From the sequence record NC_049390.1: DNA of 32,848 nucleotides; one strand, written 5' to 3'. The notes under the pieces are model-generated. The model worked only from the letters and a program-made list of their open reading frames with translations. It was not told the DNA's origin and did no database searches. This document shows positions 8,491 to 32,706 of the stretch, piece after piece (the first letter of the stretch is position 1; the number at the start of each line of letters is the position of its first letter). Source of the DNA: Peduovirus P24A7b. The translations under genes were made by a program, and so were the position numbers.

Positions 8491-8920
8491 TGCCGTCACG
8501 GTGCTGAAAACTAACCCCGATATGCTGCGGATATTCGTGGATAACGGGAGTATTGCCTCCACGCTGGCGGCGTCGTTGTCATTCGAAAAGCGTTACACGC
8601 TCAATGTGATTGTGACCGACTTTACCGGTGATTTTGACCTGCTCATCGTGCCGGTGCTGGCGTGGCTGCGGGAAAATCAGCCCGACATCATGACCACCGA
8701 CGAAGGCCAGAAAAAAGGTTTCACGTTTTATGCAGACATCAACAATGACAGCAGCTTTGATATCAGCATCAGCCTGATGCTGACCGAGCGCACGCTGGTC
8801 AGTGAGGTGGACGGCGCGCTGCATGTGAAGAATATCCCGGAACCCCCGCCGCCGGAGCCGGTCACTCGCCCGATGGAGCTTTATATCAATGGCGAACTGG
8901 TGAGTAAGTGGGATGAATGA
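8453..8920 (+). CDS. R: Tail completion protein R
   Basis: 155 aa, matches P2 gpR in sequence, length and position. Confidence 0.9.
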   Translation: MLKPDSLRRALTDAVTVLKTNPDMLRIFVDNGSIASTLAASLSFEKRYTLNVIVTDFTGDFDLLIVPVLAWLRENQPDIMTTDEGQKKGFTFYADINNDSSFDISISLMLTERTLVSEVDGALHVKNIPEPPPPEPVTRPMELYINGELVSKWDE

Positions 8921-9365
8921 GTTTAAGCGTTTTGAAGACCGGCTGACCGGACTGATTGAATCGCTGTCACCGTCAGGGCGTCGACGACTGAGCGCCGAAC
9001 TGGCGAAACGTCTGCGTCAGAGTCAGCAGCGTCGGGTGATGGCACAGAAAGCCCCGGACGGCACACCCTACGCGCCACGCCAGCAGCAGAGCGCCAGAAA
9101 AAAGACCGGTCGCGTTAAGCGAAAAATGTTTGCGAAACTTATCACCAGTCGTTTTTTGCATATCCGCGCCAGCCCGGAACAGGCATCAATGGAATTTTAC
9201 GGCGGGAAGTCGCCGAAAATCGCCAGTGTGCATCAGTTCGGTCTGTCGGAAGAAACCCGGAAAGACGGTAAGAAAATTGATTATCCGGCGCGTCCTCTGC
9301 TCGGCTTTACCGGTGAGGATGTGCAGATGATTGAAGAGATTATCCTGGCTCACCTTGAGCGTTAG
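8913..9365 (+). CDS. S: Tail completion protein S
   Basis: 150 aa, matches P2 gpS. Confidence 0.9.
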   Translation: MNEFKRFEDRLTGLIESLSPSGRRRLSAELAKRLRQSQQRRVMAQKAPDGTPYAPRQQQSARKKTGRVKRKMFAKLITSRFLHIRASPEQASMEFYGGKSPKIASVHQFGLSEETRKDGKKIDYPARPLLGFTGEDVQMIEEIILAHLER

Positions 9366-9394
9366 TTTTATCCAGGCAGAGGCTGATGCGCAAT

Positions 9395-9431
9395 TAAACA
9401 TTGAGCGGCCATGCTGGTCGCTCAATGTTTA
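9395..9431. terminator. Bidirectional hairpin between convergent S and moron genes
   Basis: Perfect 13-bp inverted repeat TAAACATTGAGCG / CGCTCAATGTTTA with an 11-nt loop, between the S stop (9365) and the minus-strand ORF stop (9437). U-tract is weak on both strands. Confidence 0.5.
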
Positions 9432-9436
9432 GAGGC

Positions 9437-10222
9437 TTATGAGTGATTTTTATTTGATGCTTTGTATTCTACAACCTTCTTATTGGCGTAAAGGAATTTT
9501 GTATATGACAGGAATATAACCAGACCTGAAATGAAATAGATGAGGGATATTATTAATAATGCTTTTTTTTGGCTGTTATTATCTTTAATTTCCTGACTTA
9601 ACCATTCCGAGTCCTCCTCGTTTAGCCGTAAGAGCTTATTGCAGGCGATCTCAGGAAGTGTGTCTTTTATAAATATGTTTCGTAGCCTCTTGCAATCGGC
9701 AAGGCTATAAGTTTTATTGAATTCAACTGTTTTATTGTTGAAGGATAAAAGAACTTTGTCACTATAAACATAGTACATCATATTTTTATATGGTATGCCT
9801 ATGGCATCTCTTACTATAGCGGATTGTTTGTTGTGTATATAACATGCGAAGAGAATATAAATAATGCTGGACAGAATTACAATTATTGTTTTAATTATGT
9901 GTGGTGGTTTTGTTATGTCACCCCAGAAGCGAGTAAGAAAAAAATACGATGTTTTTAGTTTTCCATCAATCAGCCCCTGCTGTATCATTCTCACATCTTC
10001 GATGCCTGATACATTGATTCCGTTAATTATTTTAAATAGTTGAATGTCGCGCCATTTTTTGTCGAGCATTTTTAACTTTCTGTCTGAATACTCAAAATTG
10101 AAATGATGTGCAATAAACCTCATAAGATTACTTTTACCAAAGGTAATAAATGTTAATGCTATTAATAAAAATAGATACAAAGAGATAAACCACCACGCAT
10201 TAGTCACATTATCACTGAACAT
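9437..10222 (-). CDS. Moron: hypothetical polytopic membrane protein (3 predicted TM helices), function unknown
   Basis: 261-aa ORF on the strand opposite the flanking late genes; visibly AT-rich; AGGAG Shine-Dalgarno 6 nt upstream of the ATG; hydrophobic segments near aa 9-29, 112-132 and 224-246; occupies the S-V position (orf30 in P2). Confidence 0.8.
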   Translation of the reverse strand: MFSDNVTNAWWFISLYLFLLIALTFITFGKSNLMRFIAHHFNFEYSDRKLKMLDKKWRDIQLFKIINGINVSGIEDVRMIQQGLIDGKLKTSYFFLTRFWGDITKPPHIIKTIIVILSSIIYILFACYIHNKQSAIVRDAIGIPYKNMMYYVYSDKVLLSFNNKTVEFNKTYSLADCKRLRNIFIKDTLPEIACNKLLRLNEEDSEWLSQEIKDNNSQKKALLIISLIYFISGLVIFLSYTKFLYANKKVVEYKASNKNHS

Positions 10223-10239
10223 TACGCTCTCCTCGAATG

Positions 10240-10258
10240 TTGTATGGTCGTTCTACAA
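10240..10258. promoter_or_regulatory. Dyad TTGTA-N9-TACAA in the V upstream region (candidate late-promoter activator site or operator)
   Basis: Perfect 5-bp inverted repeat in the 83-bp gap between the divergent moron and V; resembles, but is not identical in spacing to, the TGT-N12-ACA Ogr box as I recall it (here TGT-N11-ACA). Confidence 0.3.
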
Positions 10259-10305
10259 ATGAATCCAGATAGCATAACTTTTATATATTGTGCAATCTCA
10301 CACGC

Positions 10306-10941
10306 ATGAACACTCTCGCAAATATTCAGGAACTCGCGCGCGCACTGCGCAACATGATTCGTACCGGCCTTGTCGTCGAAACCAACCTTAAAGCCGGTCG
10401 CTGCCGTGTGCAGACCGGTGGCATGTGCACTGACTGGCTTCAGTGGCTGACCCATCGTGCCGGACGTTCGCGCACATGGTGGGCACCTTCCGTGGGGGAA
10501 CAGGTGCTGATTCTGGCTGTGGGCGGTGAACTCGACACGGCGTTCGTTCTGCCGGGGATTTATTCCGGCGATAACCCCGCGCCGTCTGCGTCGGCGGATG
10601 CCCTGCATATCCGTTTCCCTGACGGGGCGGTGATTGAGTATGAACCCGAAACCAGTGCACTCACGGTAAGCGGAATTAAAACGGCCAGCGTGACGGCTTC
10701 TGATTCTGTTACTGCCACGGTGCCGGTGGTCATGGTGAAAGCATCAACCCGCGTCACCCTGGACACACCGGAGGTGGTTTGCACCAACAGGCTGATTACC
10801 GGCACGCTGGAAGTGCAGAAGGGCGGGACGATGCGCGGCAACATTGAACACACCGGCGGTGAACTCTCATCAAACGGTAAGGTACTGCATACCCATAAAC
10901 ACCCCGGCGACAGCGGCGGCACAACCGGGAGCCCTCTATGA
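10306..10941 (+). CDS. V: Baseplate spike/assembly protein V
   Basis: Trimmed to ATG at 10306 (MNTLANIQELARALRNMIRTGLV...), 211 aa as for P2 gpV. Confidence 0.93.
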   Translation: MNTLANIQELARALRNMIRTGLVVETNLKAGRCRVQTGGMCTDWLQWLTHRAGRSRTWWAPSVGEQVLILAVGGELDTAFVLPGIYSGDNPAPSASADALHIRFPDGAVIEYEPETSALTVSGIKTASVTASDSVTATVPVVMVKASTRVTLDTPEVVCTNRLITGTLEVQKGGTMRGNIEHTGGELSSNGKVLHTHKHPGDSGGTTGSPL

Positions 10942-16190: not shown

Positions 16191-16598
16191 ATGGCTAAGC
16201 GGATTCCTGGTGTTAGTAAAGAATGGTCTAACTATCTCCTTTGTTTATTATTACATATGTCTTTACCTCTCTTACCTTTGGGGTTCGAGACACTTGTGCG
16301 TTCCGATCACTTGCCATCAATACAAACATTAAACATTACAGCGGCGTTTTATGCGATCTCGATAGGGCTTTCTTCTAAGAACGTTGCTATGTTTGGTTTG
16401 GGTATATTCGTGAGCATTTGTTTCTCTGTTGTATTTGGGATTGTTTCTTCAAATCCTAATTCTGATCCTAATCTTAATTTTAATGATAACTTGTATTTTT
16501 ATTCTCCAATTGCGTGTATTGTTGCTATATTTGTTATACATGCATGTGAACGATATAACAGGCATGTTGCTGATTGTACACCATTTTTTGAGTTTTAA
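16191..16598 (+). CDS. Hotspot cargo gene 1: small polytopic membrane protein (135 aa), function unknown
   Basis: AT-rich ORF at the G-FI (P2 Z/fun) position; 3-4 hydrophobic helices; Asn/Pro-rich loop NPNSDPNLNFNDN; weak Shine-Dalgarno, so the exact start is uncertain (alternative ATG at 16255). Confidence 0.65.
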   Translation: MAKRIPGVSKEWSNYLLCLLLHMSLPLLPLGFETLVRSDHLPSIQTLNITAAFYAISIGLSSKNVAMFGLGIFVSICFSVVFGIVSSNPNSDPNLNFNDNLYFYSPIACIVAIFVIHACERYNRHVADCTPFFEF

Positions 16599-16607
16599 GG
16601 GGGTGCT

Positions 16608-17099
16608 ATGATTGATACAATTATCCCAGTAATACTATCAATTCTCCCGGCAATACTATCTATATTTAGCTTAGTAGCTGTTTCTATAGGTGCATTAGTA
16701 TCTATCAGGTCTGTTAAAAAAAGACGTGAAATAGAAGTTCAGCTTTTTAATGAGATAATAAATCAACAAATTAAACAAACTAAAAGCAACCGTAAAAAGG
16801 ATCTTGAAAATAGTGTTAATGAAATAGAAAATGAACTCAAGAGAAGAGTTGATATTTTGAATAAAATGCAAAAAGATCTAGAAGCAGTTTCAGAGAACAA
16901 ATACTATTTTGATAAAGCAAAATATCTTCGAAATGTCAAGTATGGAGAGTATTTATTAGAGATAAATGAAGCTGTGAATAATATTGATAATAAAAACAAA
17001 CACTTACTAAATAACGCTCTTAATCAAAGCTCTGAGATTGGAAAAGTAAGATATCTTGGAAGAATAACAAAGGAAGCACTGGAAAAAACAGTAGGCTGA
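16608..17099 (+). CDS. Hotspot cargo gene 2: membrane-anchored charged/coiled-coil protein (163 aa), function unknown
   Basis: Strong Shine-Dalgarno (AAGGGGG) 7 nt upstream of the ATG; 9-nt gap from gene 1; N-terminal hydrophobic helix (aa 4-32) then a K/E/N-rich heptad-like region; AT-rich. Confidence 0.8.
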   Translation: MIDTIIPVILSILPAILSIFSLVAVSIGALVSIRSVKKRREIEVQLFNEIINQQIKQTKSNRKKDLENSVNEIENELKRRVDILNKMQKDLEAVSENKYYFDKAKYLRNVKYGEYLLEINEAVNNIDNKNKHLLNNALNQSSEIGKVRYLGRITKEALEKTVG

Positions 17100-17125
17100 T
17101 CATTTTTTCCGCTCGTAATAGATAA

Positions 17126-17156
17126 ACTCAAAGGTTCTTTTTGAGAGCCTTTGAGT
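17126..17156 (+). terminator. Hairpin downstream of the cargo operon
   Basis: ACTCAAAGG / CCTTTGAGT 9-bp perfect stem with a 13-nt loop, 27 nt after the stop at 17099; only a short T-run follows. Confidence 0.4.
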
Positions 17157-17343
17157 TTCAATCTTACCAATATTACTCACCATTTCTTTAGCAGCAATTT
17201 GGGGACTATAACTTCTACTTCTTGCTGTGAGTTCAACCGATGGATACAACACATTGGCTAAAACGCCCTGTGGGTGATTCATAGTCTAGCGTTTGGACTC
17301 CGTAAATTCACAGTTGGAAACTGAGCGAGTACAAATCAAGGCC

Positions 17344-17370
17344 GGCGGGCTGATTGCCCGCCTTTTCTTT
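17344..17370 (+). terminator. Intrinsic terminator insulating the hotspot from the FI late operon
   Basis: GGCGGGC-tgatt-GCCCGCC stem-loop followed by TTTTCTTT. Confidence 0.7.
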
Positions 17371-17470
17371 ACCGGTGGTTGTGCTGTTGATTAGCCAACC
17401 GGGACAAATAGCCTGACATCTCCGGCACAACTGAAAATACCACTCACCCATTAACCACGGAGTTAAACGG

Positions 17471-27907: not shown

Positions 27908-30182
27908 AGCCTCAGGGCGTTTTGTCCCTCCGTCAGCATTTGCTGCAGGCACCGGTAAGGCGTTTACTGGTGCTTATGCATGGAACGCGCCACGCGAGGC
28001 TGTCGGGCGCGAAAGACCTCTTACACGTGACGAGATGCGTCAGGTGCAAGGTGTTTTATCCACGATTAACCGCCTGCCTTACTTTTTGCGCTCGCTGTTT
28101 ACTTCACGCTATGACTACATCCGGCGCAATAAAAGCCCGGTGCACGGGTTTTATTTCCTCACATCCACTTTTCAGCGTCGTTTATGGCCGCGCATTGAGC
28201 GTGTGAATCAGCGCCATGAAATGAACACCGACGCGTCGTTGCTGTTTCTGGCAGAGCGTGACCACTATGCGCGCCTGCCGGGAATGAATGACAAGGAGCT
28301 GAAAAAGTTTGCTGCCCGTATCTCATCGCAGCTTTTCATGATGTATGAGGAACTCAGCGATGCCTGGGTGGATGCGCATGGCGAAAAAGAATCGCTGTTT
28401 ACGGATGAGGCGCAGGCTCACCTCTATGGTCATGTTGCTGGCGCTGCACGTGCTTTCAATATTTCCCCGCTCTACTGGAAAAAATACCGTAAAGGGCAGA
28501 TGACCACGAGGCAGGCATATTCTGCCATTGCCCGCCTGTTTAACGATGAGTGGTGGACTCATCAGCTTAAAGGCCAGCGTATGCGCTGGCATGAGGCGTT
28601 ACTGATTGCTGTCGGGGAGGTGAATAAAGACCGTTCTCCTTATGCCAGTAAACATGCCATTCGTGATGTGCGTGCACGCCGCCAGGCAAATCTGGAATTT
28701 CTTAAATCGTGTGACCTTGAAAACAGGGAAACCGGCGAGCGCATCGACCTTATCAGTAAGGTGATGGGCAGTATTTCTAATCCTGAAATTCGCCGGATGG
28801 AGCTGATGAACACCATTGCCGGTATTGAGCGTTACGCCGCCGCAGAGGGTGATGTGGGGATGTTTATCACGCTGACCACGCCGTCAAAGTATCACCCGAC
28901 ACGTCAGGTCGGAAAAGGCGAAAGTAAAACCGTCCAGCTTAATCACGGCTGGAATGATGAGGCATTTAATCCAAAGGATGCGCAGCGTTATCTCTGCCGT
29001 ATCTGGAGCCTGATGCGCACGGCATTCAAGGATAATGATTTACAGGCCTACGGTTTGCGTGTTGTTGAACCACACCACGACGGAACGCCGCACTGGCATA
29101 TGATGCTTTTTTGTAATCCACGCCAGCGTAACCAGATTATTGAAATCATGCGTCGCTATGCGCTCAAAGAGGATGGCGACGAAAGAGGAGCCGCGCGAAA
29201 CCGTTTTCAGGCAAAACACCTTAACCGGGGCGGTGCTGCGGGATATATCGCGAAATACATCTCAAAAAACATCGACGGCTATGCACTGGATGGTCAGCTC
29301 GATAATGATACCGGTAGGCCGCTGAAAGACACAGCTGCTGCTGTTACCGCATGGGCGTCAACGTGGCGCATTCCGCAATTTAAAACGGTTGGTCTGCCGA
29401 CAATGGGGGCTTACCGTGAACTACGCAAATTGCCTCGCGGCGTCAGCATTGCTGATGAGTTTGACGAGCGCGTCGAGGCTGCACGCGCCGCTGCAGACAG
29501 TGGTGATTTTGCGTTGTATATCAGCGCGCAGGGCGGGGCAAATGTCCCGCGCGATTGCCAGACTGTCAGGGTCGCCCGTAGCCCGTCGGATGACGTTAAC
29601 GAGTACGAGGAAGAAGTCGAGAGAGTGGTCGGCATTTACGCGCCGCATCTCGGCGCGCGTCATATTCATATCACCAGAACGACGGACTGGCGCATTGTTC
29701 CGAAAGTGCCGGTCGTTGAGCCTTTGACTTTAAAAAGCGGCATCGCCGCGCCTCGGAGTCCTGTCAATAACTGTGGAAAGCTCACCGGTGGTGATACTTC
29801 GTTACCGGCTCCCACACCTTCTGAGCACGCCGCAGCCGTGCTTAATCTGGTTGATGACGGAGTTATTGAATGGAATGAACCGGAGGTCGTGAGGGCGCTC
29901 AGGGGCGCATTAAAACACGACCTGCGAACGCCAAACCGTCAGCAGAGAAACGGAAGCCCGTTAAAACTACATGAAATTGCACCATCGGCCAGACTGACCC
30001 GGTCGGAAAGAATGCAAATTACCCGTATCCGCGTTGACCTTGCTCAGAACTGTATCAGGCCGCAGCGATGGGAGTTTGAGGCGCTGGCGCGTGGCGCGAC
30101 CGTAAATTATGACGGAAAAAAATTCACGTATCCGGTCGCTGATGAGTGGCCGGGATTCTCAACAGTAATGGAGTGGAAATGA
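27897..30182 (+). CDS. A: Rolling-circle replication initiator A
   Basis: Trimmed to ATG at 27897 (MAVKASGRFVPPSAFAAGTGK...), 761 aa as for P2 gpA; contains the twin-tyrosine motif GYIAKYISK (about 29244-29270). Confidence 0.95.
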   Translation: MAVKASGRFVPPSAFAAGTGKAFTGAYAWNAPREAVGRERPLTRDEMRQVQGVLSTINRLPYFLRSLFTSRYDYIRRNKSPVHGFYFLTSTFQRRLWPRIERVNQRHEMNTDASLLFLAERDHYARLPGMNDKELKKFAARISSQLFMMYEELSDAWVDAHGEKESLFTDEAQAHLYGHVAGAARAFNISPLYWKKYRKGQMTTRQAYSAIARLFNDEWWTHQLKGQRMRWHEALLIAVGEVNKDRSPYASKHAIRDVRARRQANLEFLKSCDLENRETGERIDLISKVMGSISNPEIRRMELMNTIAGIERYAAAEGDVGMFITLTTPSKYHPTRQVGKGESKTVQLNHGWNDEAFNPKDAQRYLCRIWSLMRTAFKDNDLQAYGLRVVEPHHDGTPHWHMMLFCNPRQRNQIIEIMRRYALKEDGDERGAARNRFQAKHLNRGGAAGYIAKYISKNIDGYALDGQLDNDTGRPLKDTAAAVTAWASTWRIPQFKTVGLPTMGAYRELRKLPRGVSIADEFDERVEAARAAADSGDFALYISAQGGANVPRDCQTVRVARSPSDDVNEYEEEVERVVGIYAPHLGARHIHITRTTDWRIVPKVPVVEPLTLKSGIAAPRSPVNNCGKLTGGDTSLPAPTPSEHAAAVLNLVDDGVIEWNEPEVVRALRGALKHDLRTPNRQQRNGSPLKLHEIAPSARLTRSERMQITRIRVDLAQNCIRPQRWEFEALARGATVNYDGKKFTYPVADEWPGFSTVMEWK

Positions 30183-30634
30183 TGGCAAAAATTCACGAGG
30201 TAAAGCTGCACGCCAAATATTTTGACCTTGTGCTGGAAGGAAAGAAACGCGCAGAGTTTCGGAAAAATGACCGTAATTATGAGCGCGGGGACACGTTGAT
30301 TTTGCATGAATGGGTACAGGGTGTGTATACGGGGCGAAAGGTTGAAGCCCGGATAACAGATGTTACTGACCTGTCAGACTGGCTGGAAGATTATGTCTTG
30401 CTAAGTATTGAGCTGCTTAATACAGGCGCATATGAGATTGTGAACTGGAAAGAACTTAGTGAGCGTGGTCTGGTATTCAGAATTAATCATGAAATTATGC
30501 ATCAGCTCGGCCTTTCTGTTATGTATGAACCAGAGACGGGGATGTCTGGCGGGGCAATGGTTGCCACGGATGGAGCATGGAACTATTCAGATGAACAGAT
30601 GGAGCGTGCACAGCAAAACGGGTGGCTTGGATAA
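30179..30634 (+). CDS. ASCH/DUF3850-like domain protein with a C-terminal extension (about 151 aa)
   Basis: N-terminal about 75 aa (MAKIHEVKLHAKYFDLVLEGKKRAEFRKNDRNYERGDTLILHEW...) carries the ASCH-type G-x-K-x-x-E-x-R motif; start overlaps the A stop (ATGATG, start at 30179 or 30182). Confidence 0.7.
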   Translation: MMAKIHEVKLHAKYFDLVLEGKKRAEFRKNDRNYERGDTLILHEWVQGVYTGRKVEARITDVTDLSDWLEDYVLLSIELLNTGAYEIVNWKELSERGLVFRINHEIMHQLGLSVMYEPETGMSGGAMVATDGAWNYSDEQMERAQQNGWLG

Positions 30635-30840
30635 TGCACAGAATACCAGGCGAGATACCGCAACATAAAACTAAAAATATCAAGCTGATGGCTATTGTTC
30701 ACCGTCTACAGCAGATTATGGTTAACGAAAATCTGACGCCTGACGAGCTGGTCGGGTGTGCCGAAATAGTCCGGGATAATTACGGGCGGTTTAACCATAT
30801 CGGTCAATCCAGAGTTATGCCACCACCACGCAGACGATAG
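30634..30840 (+). CDS. Small hypothetical protein (68 aa), translationally coupled to the ASCH-like gene
   Basis: TAATG stop/start overlap at 30632-30636; basic Pro/Arg-rich C-terminus. Confidence 0.45.
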   Translation: MHRIPGEIPQHKTKNIKLMAIVHRLQQIMVNENLTPDELVGCAEIVRDNYGRFNHIGQSRVMPPPRRR

Positions 30841-30964
30841 AGAACGCCGCCAGTCGTGAAACTTGTTTTCAGGGCTGGCGGGGTTGAACAACGAGCGAAG
30901 CGAGGCGTTAGTTGACAGTAATATTTTTACTGCGTTGGTGCTGGTTTTTGACGGTTGAAAGGAG

Positions 30965-30981
30965 TTAGCTCGGAGAGCTAA
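30965..30981. promoter_or_regulatory. Palindrome TTAGCTC-gga-GAGCTAA upstream of cargo gene 31070
   Basis: Perfect 7-bp inverted repeat about 90 bp upstream of the ATG at 31070; a GCTAACA direct repeat at 30983 and 31023. Confidence 0.3.
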
Positions 30982-31069
30982 AGCTAACAACTTACAAATA
31001 TTCAAAAGTAAGCTTCCTGTTGCTAACATAAGGTCGATTTTTTATGTGGATGATGCAAAAAGGATAGCT

Positions 31070-31801
31070 ATGGATACTGTAATCGCTTTTCTATCACTCG
31101 CTTTTTTCGTTGCTTTTTTCATCGGGTTAATCAAACCATCACTGGTGCGGATGCCAAACCGTAAACGTGCAAGTGCGGTTTATCTCGGAGGAGGTTTTGT
31201 ATTGAGCATAATTGGTTCAATACTCTATCCAACAGAAAAAAGCCAGCCAGTTGCTAAAACTGAAACATCAACCGTTGCAGAACACCAAGTCCAAAAAACA
31301 TTCGAATATGGTGGAAAAACACTCAAGGAATATCGGAACGAGCCAAAGAAAACTCGACACGATATTGTAAATAGTTACATTGATTTTAAGGAAGTGCCAG
31401 TCACCGCATCAGATGCATTTTATGCCTGCATGAGTGAATATACTTTTACCAAAGATGATGAGTTGAAACTCGGTGATGTTCTTGGATGGTGCTTTAATGA
31501 TTATGAAAAAGATCCGCAATCACTAAACAATAAAATCAACCTTGATACATTTCAGAGTAATTTTAGTGGTTGGGATGGTTCTTATCGACCATTGGAAAAG
31601 TTAATTAAAGAGAATATGAACGATGATTCATCTTATAAACATGTGTCAACAGTGTATCATTTAATCCTGAATAAAGACCCTCACGCCATTGTGAAAACCA
31701 CATTTCGCGGTACTAATGCCTATGGTGGTGTCGTGAAGCAAACAATAGCAGCGCGTGTTAATGTGAAAACGGGTGAAATAGTTTCGATACTAAATAATTG
31801 A
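31070..31801 (+). CDS. Hotspot cargo: two-TM membrane-anchored protein with about 190-aa soluble domain, function unknown
   Basis: Trimmed from the GTG at 31046 to the ATG at 31070 (AAGGA Shine-Dalgarno); hydrophobic helices at aa 3-22 and 36-52; AT-rich; at the A-to-cos position (tin/old in P2). Confidence 0.75.
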   Translation: MDTVIAFLSLAFFVAFFIGLIKPSLVRMPNRKRASAVYLGGGFVLSIIGSILYPTEKSQPVAKTETSTVAEHQVQKTFEYGGKTLKEYRNEPKKTRHDIVNSYIDFKEVPVTASDAFYACMSEYTFTKDDELKLGDVLGWCFNDYEKDPQSLNNKINLDTFQSNFSGWDGSYRPLEKLIKENMNDDSSYKHVSTVYHLILNKDPHAIVKTTFRGTNAYGGVVKQTIAARVNVKTGEIVSILNN

Positions 31802-31806
31802 TGGTG

Positions 31807-31846
31807 ATGCCACCGATACTGAAGTTTGATATTGTGTCGGTGGCAT
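31807..31846 (+). terminator. Stem-loop downstream of gene 31070..31801
   Basis: Perfect 10-bp inverted repeat ATGCCACCGA / TCGGTGGCAT with a 20-nt loop starting 6 nt after the stop; T-rich runs follow further downstream. Confidence 0.4.
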
Positions 31847-32007
31847 TGAAAGATGATCTTAAAGCATGTCTATTTTTTTGTTTTACATGATTTTTTTTTT
31901 TGATGTGTTGTGCGTTGTTTTGTTTGTAATTAGAGTGCTTGATGATTTAAATTTCGTTTAAATGTTGTGTGAAAATATTGTGATTTTCTATATCAAGGAT
32001 TTGTTTC

Positions 32008-32706
32008 ATGAAGTATTGTGGGATAGCTTTAATAATATGTCTTTGCTTGTTTATGTTCGCATTTGGTTTTGTGTTGGGTGGAGTTCAATGGGCATGGGGC
32101 GAGAGTGAAAATAATAGCAAGGTCGCATTTTGGACAATGCTAGGAGGGTGGGTGTCAGGATTGGCTACTCTCGCGGCTGTGGGGGTTTCATTATTTACAA
32201 GTTATTATGCGATGATTTCAGGCAAAGAGAAAGTTGACGTTGTTTTTGCGCCTATATATACGACCTCTACGGCAAAAAAAGCAGATAAGCTTTCATTGCA
32301 AGATTTGGCTAATATCAAAGTGACAAATTTACACGGTGTGAAGTGTACTATTGTTAATGTTTATATGAAGTTTAGTGATGTTAAGGAACCATTAAAGATT
32401 AATAACCTTAAACAGGGAGGTAAGCCAATACCTTATACGCTATGTAATATAAGCGATATGTGGGAGTTTGCATTTGGGATGGAGTCAAACCCTAGATTGA
32501 GATTTCTATTGTCAGGGTTGAAATATGAAGGTCGACCATCCTTTAAAAAAGGGCATTTCATCATTGAAACAGCAATGAAACAATACAAGTTAAAGATGCG
32601 GAAAGACTTTCTCTCAATATTACAGAGTGAGTATCAAAGCATAGAGGAAGAATCTAAACGTAACTCAGTTAAATCAGGGTGGTCACGGTATAAAAAACTG
32701 AATTAA
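32008..32706 (+). CDS. Hotspot cargo: two-TM membrane-anchored protein with about 165-aa soluble domain, function unknown
   Basis: ATG at 32008 with AAGGA Shine-Dalgarno; hydrophobic helices at aa 5-25 and 40-64; very AT-rich; last gene before the cos end. Confidence 0.75.
   Translation: MKYCGIALIICLCLFMFAFGFVLGGVQWAWGESENNSKVAFWTMLGGWVSGLATLAAVGVSLFTSYYAMISGKEKVDVVFAPIYTTSTAKKADKLSLQDLANIKVTNLHGVKCTIVNVYMKFSDVKEPLKINNLKQGGKPIPYTLCNISDMWEFAFGMESNPRLRFLLSGLKYEGRPSFKKGHFIIETAMKQYKLKMRKDFLSILQSEYQSIEEESKRNSVKSGWSRYKKLN

Follow-up and report, generated by a model that had tools for sequence, protein, structure and literature searches.

The orf30 gene between S and V of P2-like phages: a divergent DUF6216 family member and a possible superinfection exclusion factor

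Results

The S-V cassette of P24A7b

The sequence studied was the complete P2-like genome of Peduovirus P24A7b (NC_049390.1); coordinates refer to the window, that is, the whole stretch of DNA analysed (32,848 nt). Between genes S and V lies a cassette that contains the O-operon terminator hairpin, the antisense gene orf30, and the promoter region of pV, which depends on Ogr. Its features are as follows:

9366..10305, no strand assigned: variable cassette, from the S stop codon to the V start codon (alignments of filled and empty loci)
9395..9431, no strand assigned: hairpin formed by an inverted repeat, separating S from the convergent orf30; in P2 it is annotated as the putative rho-independent O-operon terminator
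9437..10222, minus strand: orf30 coding sequence, ATG start, 261 aa; P2 Orf30 orthologue and, by profile comparison, a distant member of the DUF6216 superfamily
9440-9496, minus strand: lysine-rich tail, aa 243-261, predicted cytoplasmic
9497..9565, minus strand: codons of TM3, aa 220-242 (hydropathy, AF2)
9566..9832, minus strand: codons of loop 2, aa 131-219, which is predicted to form a domain in the periplasm with four beta strands and two helices
9833..9901, minus strand: codons of TM2, aa 108-130 (hydropathy, AF2)
9902..10138, minus strand: codons of loop 1, aa 29-107, which is predicted to form a helical domain in the cytoplasm (AF2 helices 30-94)
10139..10198, minus strand: codons of TM1, aa 9-28 (hydropathy, AF2 helix 5-28, dN/dS of 1.2, entropy)
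10229-10234, minus strand: Shine-Dalgarno sequence GAGGAG, 6 nt before the orf30 ATG, read from the sequence
10237..10264, plus strand: site bound by the activator Ogr at the late promoter pV, by correspondence with P2 10239-10266

The limits of the cassette were set by aligning P24A7b with an empty locus (L003) and with a locus holding alternative cargo (L004). In the alignment with L003, the "empty" P2-like prophages have a 66-bp spacer in place of the cassette, and the originally predicted limits, 9366-10305, coincide exactly with the stretch by which filled loci differ from empty ones. The antisense reading frame of 261 codons was likewise upheld, as was its strong Shine-Dalgarno sequence. 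The description of the gene as markedly AT-rich also proved correct, with a GC content of 32.2% (GC3 35%) versus 54-59% (GC3 58-72%) in the flanking genes R, S, V, W, and J. At the composition of orf30, 261 stop-free codons would arise by chance with a probability of ~8e-10; the stop-free run observed was 271 codons, as compared to 155 for the longest in 2000 shuffles of the cassette.

The product of 9437..10222 is 83.9% identical in amino acids to P2 Orf30 (AAD03281), aligned over 261/261 residues, and is matched over its full length (1-261 of 261) by the phrog_2407 profile (E = 6e-143). The P2 counterpart (AF063097, 9439..10224, annotated as "nonessential") has the same slot, strand, and length (261 aa), and the terminator hairpin and the spacer between orf30 and V match those of P2 with very few base differences. 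Nucleotide identity to P2 is 90.6% in orf30 and 91.8% across the whole cassette. The P24A7b gene is nonetheless a separate allele, with 42 of its 261 residues changed, mainly in TM1 and TM2; the nearest alleles (99.9-100% identical) are those of E. coli prophages, among them a remnant in a record labelled E. coli "strain B". We regard the identification as P2 orf30, and the anatomy given above, as nearly certain. The original prediction was thus right in placing the feature at the P2 orf30 position but not in taking it for a different gene there: this gene is P2 orf30 itself, already known and long on record. The S-V locus has been listed earlier as the third variable locus of P2 (PMC3091744).

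The predicted hairpin of 13 perfect base pairs between S and orf30 is present; the P2 annotation had already assigned it to the O operon. The perfect pairs are followed by a G.T pair, three further pairs, and a 3-nt loop. The structure starts 5 nt past the orf30 stop codon and has a short TTTA tail on both strands, with folding energies of -29.4 kcal/mol on the plus strand (z = -6.4) and -22.9 kcal/mol on the minus strand (z = -5.3). A consensus terminator scan made no call on it because it has no run of T residues. The hairpin is nearly invariant across 12 alleles, and no clear compensatory changes were seen among its variants. It probably ends both the S-side and the orf30 transcripts; a terminator of its own is one of the marks of a moron, and the stability of the hairpin on the orf30 strand fits that description. 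A search of the cassette against Rfam returned no known RNA family; a sub-threshold match of a miRNA model to the hairpin was judged spurious.

The 83 bp upstream of orf30 correspond to the P2-annotated Ogr-binding site and pV promoter and are almost invariant across the 12 alleles. The Ogr site, although inside the cassette, acts for gene V and not for orf30. A promoter scan found no convincing sigma-70 promoter upstream of orf30; the best candidate (GTGAGA-19-TATGCT, 8/12) is weak and overlaps the pV core promoter.

Protein architecture and selection

Hydropathy agreed with the original prediction of three membrane segments, placing them at aa 11-29, 109-127, and 221-239 (Kyte-Doolittle 2.1-2.6). 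Family-wide, the N-termini are almost without lysine or arginine and the C-termini are rich in both; the predicted topology is N-out, C-in, with three membrane helices. TM1 is the most variable part of the protein by dN/dS and entropy. Loop 1 is invariant at 59 of its 79 positions in 49 protein variants and carries the family motif D-x-Q-L-F-[KR]-x-x-N-G-I-N-V ... D ... G; across the family, G68 and G87 are invariant and Q61 and D76 nearly so. The AF2 model of loop 2 has strands at 141-173 and helices at 174-179 and 189-198, the helices bearing the conserved residues C177 and C194. Every family member has C194 and most have C177; both are invariant in the 49 orf30 variants. On this model, the periplasmic beta/alpha domain probably carries a disulfide bond. 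Searches for structural neighbours in PDB or BFVD gave nothing significant, and hmmsearch of the family profile against PDB sequences gave no match.

The soluble loops of the protein are under purifying selection: dN/dS was 0.33 in loop 1 and 0.29 in loop 2, as compared to 1.2 in TM1 and about 1 in the membrane helices generally. Phage-contact surfaces often show diversifying selection; for the soluble loops, at about 0.3, such selection was not supported, only the membrane helices being near 1. The gene is also rarely truncated, with 461 of 464 E. coli copies covering at least 80% of orf30 and 71 of 72 copies on viral contigs intact.

Kinship with DUF6216

Searches of Pfam, NCBIfam, and PADLOC with the orf30 protein returned nothing above threshold, and RefSeq labels its copies "hypothetical protein". 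The protein falls below the DUF6216 gathering threshold (27.3 bits), giving no DUF6216 match, and its sole Pfam match, to DUF6535 on TM1, scores 19.7 bits, under the cut-off of 23.9. The original reading recognized no motif; the protein nonetheless has a family. Profile comparisons place the orf30 protein in a divergent branch of the Pfam DUF6216 (PF19723) superfamily, a link that is new here. There are 40 remote relatives (250-270 aa), and 9 of the 27 members of the family alignment match DUF6216. One of the relatives, Erwinia P0051, is recovered by the orf30 profile (E = 6e-47) and also scores above threshold for DUF6216 (32.2 bits). When aligned by hhalign with the DUF6216 subfamily of BL21, orf30 gave 69.9% probability (E = 4e-5, C-terminal half) without a bridging sequence and 97.8% (E = 1e-12) with one. 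Pairwise BLASTP between the orf30 and BL21 DUF6216 proteins was not significant; the link therefore rests on profiles and bridging sequences.

The architecture is shared as well: both groups have about 260 aa, three membrane segments, and a domain with a Cys pair between TM2 and TM3. AF2 models of the two subfamilies follow the same order of a TM segment, four strands, a Cys helix, a second Cys helix, and a long TM helix, the model of the BL21-type protein being confident only for residues 80-220. The DUF6216 protein of the P2-like remnant in BL21(DE3) (WP_000115390) is, like orf30, encoded antisense in the S-V slot, at 33% GC, and has 268 aa with three TM segments; it differs in that the region from TM1 to TM2 is longer in orf30 and has its own conserved motif. 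Family genes all have 32-38% GC within surroundings of 45-58% GC.

Distribution and the S-V slot

The orf30 gene was found in 464 of 5426 E. coli genomes. Among the 1583 E. coli genomes with P2-type S/V, it was present in 460 (~29%), and most P2-like carriers free of orf30 show the 66-bp empty spacer at S-V. BL21-type members were found in 111 of the 5426 genomes; counting both types, about 10% of complete E. coli genomes have a member. In viral genomes the association with the slot is strict, the family gene adjoining S and/or V in all 99 of the 99 viral loci that carry one. Antisense S-V members down to ~25% identity occur in P2-family prophages of several enterobacterial genera. The DUF6216 superfamily is the habitual S-V occupant across Peduoviridae. 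The site had been called a known variable one; this is true of presence and absence, but an open hotspot it is not, the slot being mostly empty or filled by this one family. Rare S-V cargo of unrelated kinds also exists. The 347-aa protein of L004, ORF16 of R18C, and an extra 273-aa protein of L126 are unrelated to the orf30 family, and the small plus-strand ORFs of L005 and L006 have just sub-threshold Pfam matches to HNH and Endonuclease_1.

Because the cassette is opposite-strand, AT-rich, and present or absent between S and V, it is moron-like, in line with the original reading, with filled and 66-bp empty loci supplying the present/absent DNA of deviant composition, 32% GC against 57%, by which such elements are recognized. 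It forms a self-contained accessory unit that was acquired horizontally. A structural or assembly role does not fit: about 70% of near-identical P2-like prophages are without the gene, the gene runs against the late operons, and the P2 annotation is "nonessential". Isolated phages such as R18C also lack orf30.

Copies outside intact prophages

Decayed prophages that retain the family gene were found in E. coli strain B, BL21, Serratia, and K. aerogenes, and the gene was intact in each decayed prophage examined. One Enterobacterales remnant has been reduced to GIY-YIG, DUF6216, CI, and an OLD-like ATPase. In a decayed prophage of Pantoea ARC270, the family gene is preceded by a 79-aa ORF, possibly what is left of an integrase. 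Family genes also lie at prophage ends, beside int in Pantoea and near putAbiC in Erwinia, and in a lone AT-rich islet in Enterobacter; a genome scan with the close-subfamily alignment yielded three loci only, all in Enterobacter. No recognizable defence islands surround the non-prophage relatives. The orf30 gene works as a single-gene module.

Regulation

In a 2026 preprint, the DUF6216 gene of BL21 bears an H-NS ChIP-seq peak and is up-regulated, together with retron Eco1, in a strain deleted for hns and stpA (bioRxiv 10.64898/2026.09.05.749240); these data concern the BL21 homologue rather than orf30. The literature searched contained no transcriptomics of P2 lysogens and no reported orf30 phenotype. 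The latter may be because H-NS silencing leaves wild-type lysogens barely expressing the gene.

Discussion

The relatives of orf30 keep one slot and are intact in every decayed prophage examined; for this reason the gene probably serves the host cell. We consider it likely that orf30 is non-structural, host-directed prophage cargo. What it does for the host is a more tentative matter. By analogy with known systems, the protein may act in superinfection exclusion at the inner membrane, a reading we favor while giving it somewhat less than an even chance. The evidence in this direction is indirect: a predicted periplasmic domain of disulfide type, the single-gene module, retention beside defence-type genes, and silencing in common with a retron in BL21. 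The proposed sequence of events is as follows: in the lysogen, H-NS and StpA would hold the cassette at low or conditional expression, on the model of the BL21 homologue, and the shared hairpin terminator would insulate orf30 from late transcription. The protein, placed in the inner membrane and needing no partner gene, would benefit the prophage-carrying cell. Its periplasmic domain would then hinder the genome-delivery machinery of a superinfecting phage as it crosses the inner membrane, in the manner of P22 SieA, HK97 gp15, or T4 Imm. Several results speak against exclusion: orf30 has no similarity to P22 SieA, no family member gives a PADLOC match above noise, structural searches of PDB and BFVD gave no significant neighbour, the soluble domains are under purifying selection, no convincing sigma-70 promoter precedes the gene, and the non-prophage relatives lie outside recognizable defence islands.

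Prophage products may also serve the host in ways unrelated to phages, as do Bor and Lom of lambda, and the periplasmic domain of orf30 could alter envelope physiology with respect to colicins, T6SS effectors, antimicrobial peptides, or stress. Such a host-fitness factor would be an accessory gene acting singly and retained in remnants, much as observed; where copies stand alone in the chromosome, in Enterobacter and other genomes, their neighbours are ordinary genes and not defence islands, and known defence proteins show no similarity to orf30 (PADLOC-DB v2 gave 0 matches for orf30 and, among 27 relatives, only isolated ones with E of 0.007 or weaker). The family is, however, found overwhelmingly in P2-type prophages and in a single slot by the tail and baseplate genes, its remnants pair it with defence-type genes (OLD-like ATPase, putAbiC, retron), and no virulence or stress domain is detectable; on balance we think this explanation unlikely. 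RexB exemplifies a single-protein membrane effector of abortive infection that acts otherwise than by blocking entry. If orf30 were of that type, its cytoplasmic loop would sense a phage product, the protein would oligomerize, the membrane potential would collapse, and the cell would die; we give this little credence.

A contribution to the lytic cycle, whether in lysis timing, holin activity, genome delivery, or tail assembly at the membrane, is suggested by the neighbouring genes (lysA, lysB, lysC, and those for tail completion and baseplate) and by the overlap of the orf30 upstream region with the Ogr-controlled pV promoter. Yet orf30 is antisense to both late operons, with a terminator in between, and the Ogr site is centred only ~27 bp from the ATG, from which we infer that a full-length orf30 mRNA would be impossible in the usual -55 geometry. 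The gene is also missing from the ~70% of near-identical prophages noted above, is annotated as nonessential in P2, and is intact in remnants from which capsid, lysis, or tail genes have disappeared, all of which make a lytic role improbable. At least as hard to credit is a selfish addiction module, in which a membrane toxin would be checked by antisense RNA or late-operon read-through and loss would be lethal. Persistence in heavily decayed prophages, convergent transcription of S and orf30 over a shared hairpin, and H-NS silencing would all suit such a module. The cassette, though, holds neither an antitoxin ORF nor a known RNA family, and orf30, whose 261 aa include two conserved soluble domains, does not resemble type I toxins. 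Moreover, the slot is cleanly empty in ~70% of P2-like prophages, and loss or absence of orf30 is therefore tolerated; we consider addiction very improbable.

Exclusion of superinfecting phages at the inner membrane thus remains our preferred, if tentative, reading. Its widest form is that orf30 and DUF6216 constitute a hitherto unrecognized single-gene inner-membrane anti-phage family, acting by entry exclusion or abortive infection, that S-V is a third, dedicated immunity slot of Peduoviridae, and that the gene is silenced by H-NS and domesticated by bacteria upon prophage decay; taken as a whole, we find this proposal rather doubtful. It bears on a textbook phage: three of the four AT-rich non-essential genes of P2, old, tin, and fun, have proved to be anti-phage systems. 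The fourth is orf30, at a locus absent from recent P2 hotspot papers and skipped by recent surveys of defence hotspots. Kinship with DUF6216, fidelity to S-V across genera, intactness in the remnants examined, and silencing in BL21 together with a retron now make the question testable. If orf30 does exclude phages, it would represent a new membrane-acting family in prophage-encoded immunity.

Comparison with known systems

The old/tin (TO) and Z/fun loci of P2 resemble S-V in holding low-GC, present/absent cargo in a conserved backbone; they differ in that many unrelated defence systems are found there, whereas S-V is mostly empty or occupied by one family. Homology between orf30 and P22 SieA was rejected (hhalign probability 0.2%, BLASTP E = 11; the comparison was with type A, of P22, only). 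The likeness lies in the design: SieA is a prophage-encoded, single-gene product predicted to be a 3-TM inner-membrane protein, its gene, separately regulated, converges from the opposite strand on a late virion gene, and its family is divided into types less than 30% identical (PMC10883804). SieA is shorter (162-164 aa) and has no large Cys domain in the periplasm; both its exclusion phenotype and the ejection proteins that it targets are proven, whereas the role of orf30 is proposed by analogy. HK97 gp15 is encoded by a moron within the tail operon, in the tail-gene region as orf30 is, with deviant GC and its own transcription signals; it is a YebO-like inner-membrane protein that keeps phage genomes from entering, and bacteria carry homologues of it outside prophages (PMC3594210). 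It is also, to judge by its description, a small and unrelated protein, and one for which expression from the prophage and a phenotype have been demonstrated.

Identity of the cassette

The window holds the whole genome of a P2-like phage, with its first base at cos; peduoviruses of Escherichia and Yersinia are about 96% identical to it. The features on which the original prediction was built (an AT-rich antisense ORF, its Shine-Dalgarno sequence, three hydrophobic segments, and a hairpin) were all recovered between the late genes S and V, where that prediction had placed them:

8913-9365, S (Pfam Phage_tail_S)
9395-9431, inverted repeat of 13 perfect pairs, a G.T pair, and 3 more pairs
9437-10222, minus strand, ORF with ATG start, 261 aa, antisense to both S and V
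GAGGAG, 6 nt 5' of the ATG, Shine-Dalgarno sequence of the ORF
aa 11-29, 109-127, and 221-239, the three hydrophobic segments of its product
10306-10941, V (Pfam Phage_base_V and Phage_spike)

The GC content of the ORF was 32.2% (GC3 35%), compared with 54-59% (GC3 58-72%) in the neighboring genes R, S, V, W, and J. At this composition the chance of a stop-free frame of 261 codons is about 8e-10, and stop-free runs in 2000 shuffles of the cassette reached at most 155 codons. The inverted repeat folded at -29.4 kcal/mol on the plus strand (z = -6.4) and -22.9 kcal/mol on the minus strand (z = -5.3).

The gene had been described before, as P2 orf30. The cassette (9366-10305) shared 91.8% nucleotide identity with P2 (AF063097) positions 9368-10304; its product was 83.9% identical to P2 Orf30, labeled 'nonessential' in the P2 record, and matched phrog_2407 ('unknown function') end to end. 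In the P2 annotation the hairpin is a 'putative rho-independent terminator for O operon', and the late promoter pV has its Ogr activator binding site 15-42 bp 5' of the start of orf30. Based on these matches, the ORF is orf30 itself: the original prediction had the place right, but there is no separate gene at the orf30 position. The locus was also correctly described as a known variable site, being one of three with horizontally acquired DNA in P2-like phages (PMC3091744); recent papers on P2 defense hotspots do not mention it. In the P2 record, the first nucleotide of the V start codon is also the pV transcription start; since gene V has no upstream Shine-Dalgarno sequence (window 10285-10310), the V operon mRNA may be leaderless.

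Family and predicted structure

Word-indexed searches retrieved only five 90%-identity clusters; an exhaustive phmmer search yielded 40 relatives, of which about 20 were full-length proteins (250-270 aa) with identities of 17-33%. No motif had been recognized in the product before; the family alignment retained three TM segments and, in loop 1 between TM1 and TM2, a motif D-x-Q-L-F-[KR]-x-x-N-G-I-N-V ... D ... G. G68, G87, C194, and I212 were invariant, Q61 and D76 nearly so, and C177 was present in most members.

Nine of 27 alignment members matched Pfam DUF6216, for which the window protein scored below threshold. An Erwinia 'DUF6216 family protein' (32.2 bits in Pfam, threshold 27.3) was found by the orf30 profile with E = 6e-47. 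An independent link came from the BL21(DE3) P2-like prophage remnant, where the gene for a RefSeq 'DUF6216 family protein' (268 aa, 44.5 bits; here BL21-type) lies antisense in the S-V slot, as orf30 does. Pairwise similarity between these two proteins was not significant; profile-profile comparison gave E = 4e-5 over the C-terminal 112 columns and, with the Erwinia sequence added as a bridge, E = 1e-12 (97.8% probability, 217 columns). The profiles thus point to membership of orf30 in the DUF6216 superfamily, an assignment new here.

The AlphaFold2 model of the orf30 protein (mean pLDDT 83, pTM 0.73) contained the following elements:

5-28, TM1
30-94, helical loop
109-133, TM2
141-173, four beta strands
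between the strands and the long helix, two helices with C177 and C194
202-260, one long helix including TM3

In the BL21-type model (pLDDT 69 overall), residues 80-220 (pLDDT 77-93) followed the same order of elements from TM2 on, with the two invariant cysteines in equivalent helices. Across the family, lysine and arginine were almost absent from N-termini and numerous in C-termini, which suggests that the N-terminus is out and the C-terminus in. Loop 1 would then be cytoplasmic, and the cysteine-pair domain would be periplasmic, where a disulfide can form. By computation, the protein is predicted to span the inner membrane with three TM helices, in N-out/C-in topology.

Distribution and the S-V slot

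P2-type S/V sequences were present in 1583 of 5426 complete E. coli genomes, and 460-464 of these carriers had orf30, in every case on the chromosome. Gene coverage was at least 80% in 461 of the 464 copies, at 86-100% nucleotide identity to the window. In most carriers without orf30, a clean spacer of 66 bp separated S from V and had a GC-rich hairpin of its own; in E. coli PBS4 (L003:754-819) this hairpin is GCCGCCGG-N6-CCGGCGGC, immediately 5' of V. The window and the spacer diverged from just past the S stop codon to the V start codon, so that the variable unit is exactly 9366-10305; no flanking repeats were found there. Given the distinct spacer and hairpin, the late-promoter architecture of V must differ between filled and empty phages.

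In 99 IMG/VR loci with an orf30-type or BL21-type gene, S and/or V adjoined it without exception (both in 93, the remaining loci being interrupted by contig ends). This set included members 34-39% identical to orf30, in phages with S only about 50% identical to that of the window, and complete P2-like prophages held a 25%-identical relative in the same slot. One family, the DUF6216 superfamily, dominates the S-V slot across Peduoviridae, a finding added by the present analysis.

A few genomes had other cargo in the slot: a minus-strand 347-aa protein (L004), small plus-strand ORFs with HNH-type Pfam matches, sub-threshold only (L005, L006), and the plus-strand ORF16 of phage R18C. The 347-aa protein and ORF16 were ruled out as orf30 relatives by comparison with the family profile. 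Some divergent P2-like phages (L126:4946-5767; also L127, L130, L131) had, between S and their orf30 homologue, an additional cargo gene; its 273-aa product, with two hydrophobic helices near the N-terminus, is unrelated to the orf30 family.

The other variable slots of the window were also filled. The Z/fun slot (16191-17099; AT-rich island 16200-17400) held two plus-strand ORFs of 135 and 163 aa (34-36% GC), without a match in Pfam or PADLOC; the pair is uncharacterized hotspot cargo. In the cos-proximal TO (old/tin) slot (30146-32706; AT-rich from around position 31200 onward) lay the genes for an ASCH/DUF3850/DUF7415 protein (30146-30634) and three ORFs of 107 aa (minus), 251 aa (plus), and 232 aa (plus), none with a match in Pfam or PADLOC.

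Selection and retention

Based on twelve diverse alleles, dN/dS was 0.46 for orf30 as a whole, compared with 0.08-0.14 for R, S, V, and W. The surplus lay in the membrane helices (N-terminus and TM1, 1.2; TM2, 0.68; TM3, 1.0); the soluble parts were under purifying selection (loop 1, 0.33; loop 2, between TM2 and TM3, 0.29; C-terminal tail, 0.23). The gene was intact in 71 of 72 IMG/VR copies. Across 49 distinct variants of the protein, no change was seen at 59 of 79 positions in loop 1, at 53 of 89 in loop 2, or at any of the three cysteines. Hence orf30 is a real, selected gene, constrained in its two soluble domains. The non-coding cassette ends were nearly invariant between alleles, as expected for parts that the phage requires as terminator and pV promoter.

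The family gene also outlasted its prophages. It was intact in the decayed prophages of BL21, Klebsiella aerogenes, and Serratia rubidaea (only Ogr, DUF6216, and S left), and in a record of E. coli 'strain B' (L027, NZ_CP115178, 15010-18699), a remnant with a portal-to-S deletion. In that remnant, orf30 was 99.9% identical, the deletion fused portal and S remnants, and the TO slot held an 'ABC-three component system' of three genes. An Enterobacterales remnant at the ybjL site (L029:4836-9849) retained only a GIY-YIG protein, intact DUF6216, a CI repressor, and an OLD/AAA_15-type (OLD-like) ATPase, and looks like a domesticated mini-island of defense-type genes. The BL21-type gene occurred in 111 of 5426 E. 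coli genomes, full length in all. Every family gene examined had 32-38% GC in surroundings of 45-58%.

Some relatives lay outside the slot: immediately after the integrase at the end of a P2/186-like prophage (Pantoea), preceded at the same chromosomal spot of a second Pantoea by a 79-aa ORF alone (maybe an integrase remnant), at a prophage end with a portal gene and putAbiC nearby (Erwinia), and as a lone 1.6-kb AT-rich islet amid housekeeping genes (Enterobacter). These varied positions suggest that the protein works without a dedicated partner gene. Pantoea and Erwinia members (L010 compared with L012 and L013) shared an acetyltransferase, aroF, tyrA, and pheA neighborhood with or without remaining prophage, which suggests a shared attachment site where only the family gene was left after prophage loss.

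Regulation

A promoter scan found no good sigma-70 promoter upstream of orf30; the best match (GTGAGA-19-TATGCT, 8/12) overlapped the pV core promoter. P2 late promoters usually have Ogr centered at -55; with that geometry, the Ogr site probably lies too near the orf30 start codon for a full-length transcript of the gene. In the BL21 P2-like prophage, three H-NS ChIP-seq peaks coincided with the lowest-GC regions (the retron RT, retron Ndt, and DUF6216 genes), all up-regulated in an hns/stpA deletion strain (bioRxiv 10.64898/2026.09.05.749240, a 2026 preprint). The direct evidence of H-NS silencing concerns the BL21 homologue alone; being equally AT-rich and placed in the same slot, orf30 may be silenced likewise. 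In the lysogen, orf30 transcription is likely low and H-NS-limited, with the shared hairpin as its end point; activation of pV and the O operon by Ogr would probably override it.

Possible function

The gene orf30 is an accessory, non-structural, single-gene unit, under purifying selection, tied to P2-type prophages and retained in their remnants. The lysogen presumably benefits from it, and its product presumably acts at the envelope. As a lytic-cycle helper, or as an addiction-type toxin, orf30 would fit poorly with a slot so often empty, with its insulation by antisense placement, and with its persistence in remnants devoid of lytic genes; both explanations are disfavored.

The mechanism we prefer is that the periplasmic domain would exclude superinfecting phages at the inner membrane. 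Counting against it, profile and BLASTP comparisons found no homology to P22 SieA, PADLOC gave no match above noise for orf30 or family members, dN/dS showed no diversifying selection in the soluble loops, and the published literature searched held no report of an orf30 phenotype. Alternatively, the protein may be a phage-unrelated envelope fitness factor or an abortive-infection membrane effector, the two standing rivals. With the superfamily assignment, the one-family slot, the pattern of remnant retention, and the connection to H-NS silencing, orf30 now comes with a specific hypothesis that can be tested.

Superinfection exclusion at the inner membrane has an analogue in T4 Imm. Exclusion by orf30 would also find likenesses in P22 SieA, a three-TM protein encoded antisense beside late gene 16, with types <30% identical (PMC10883804), and in HK97 gp15, a moron within the tail operon (PMC3594210).
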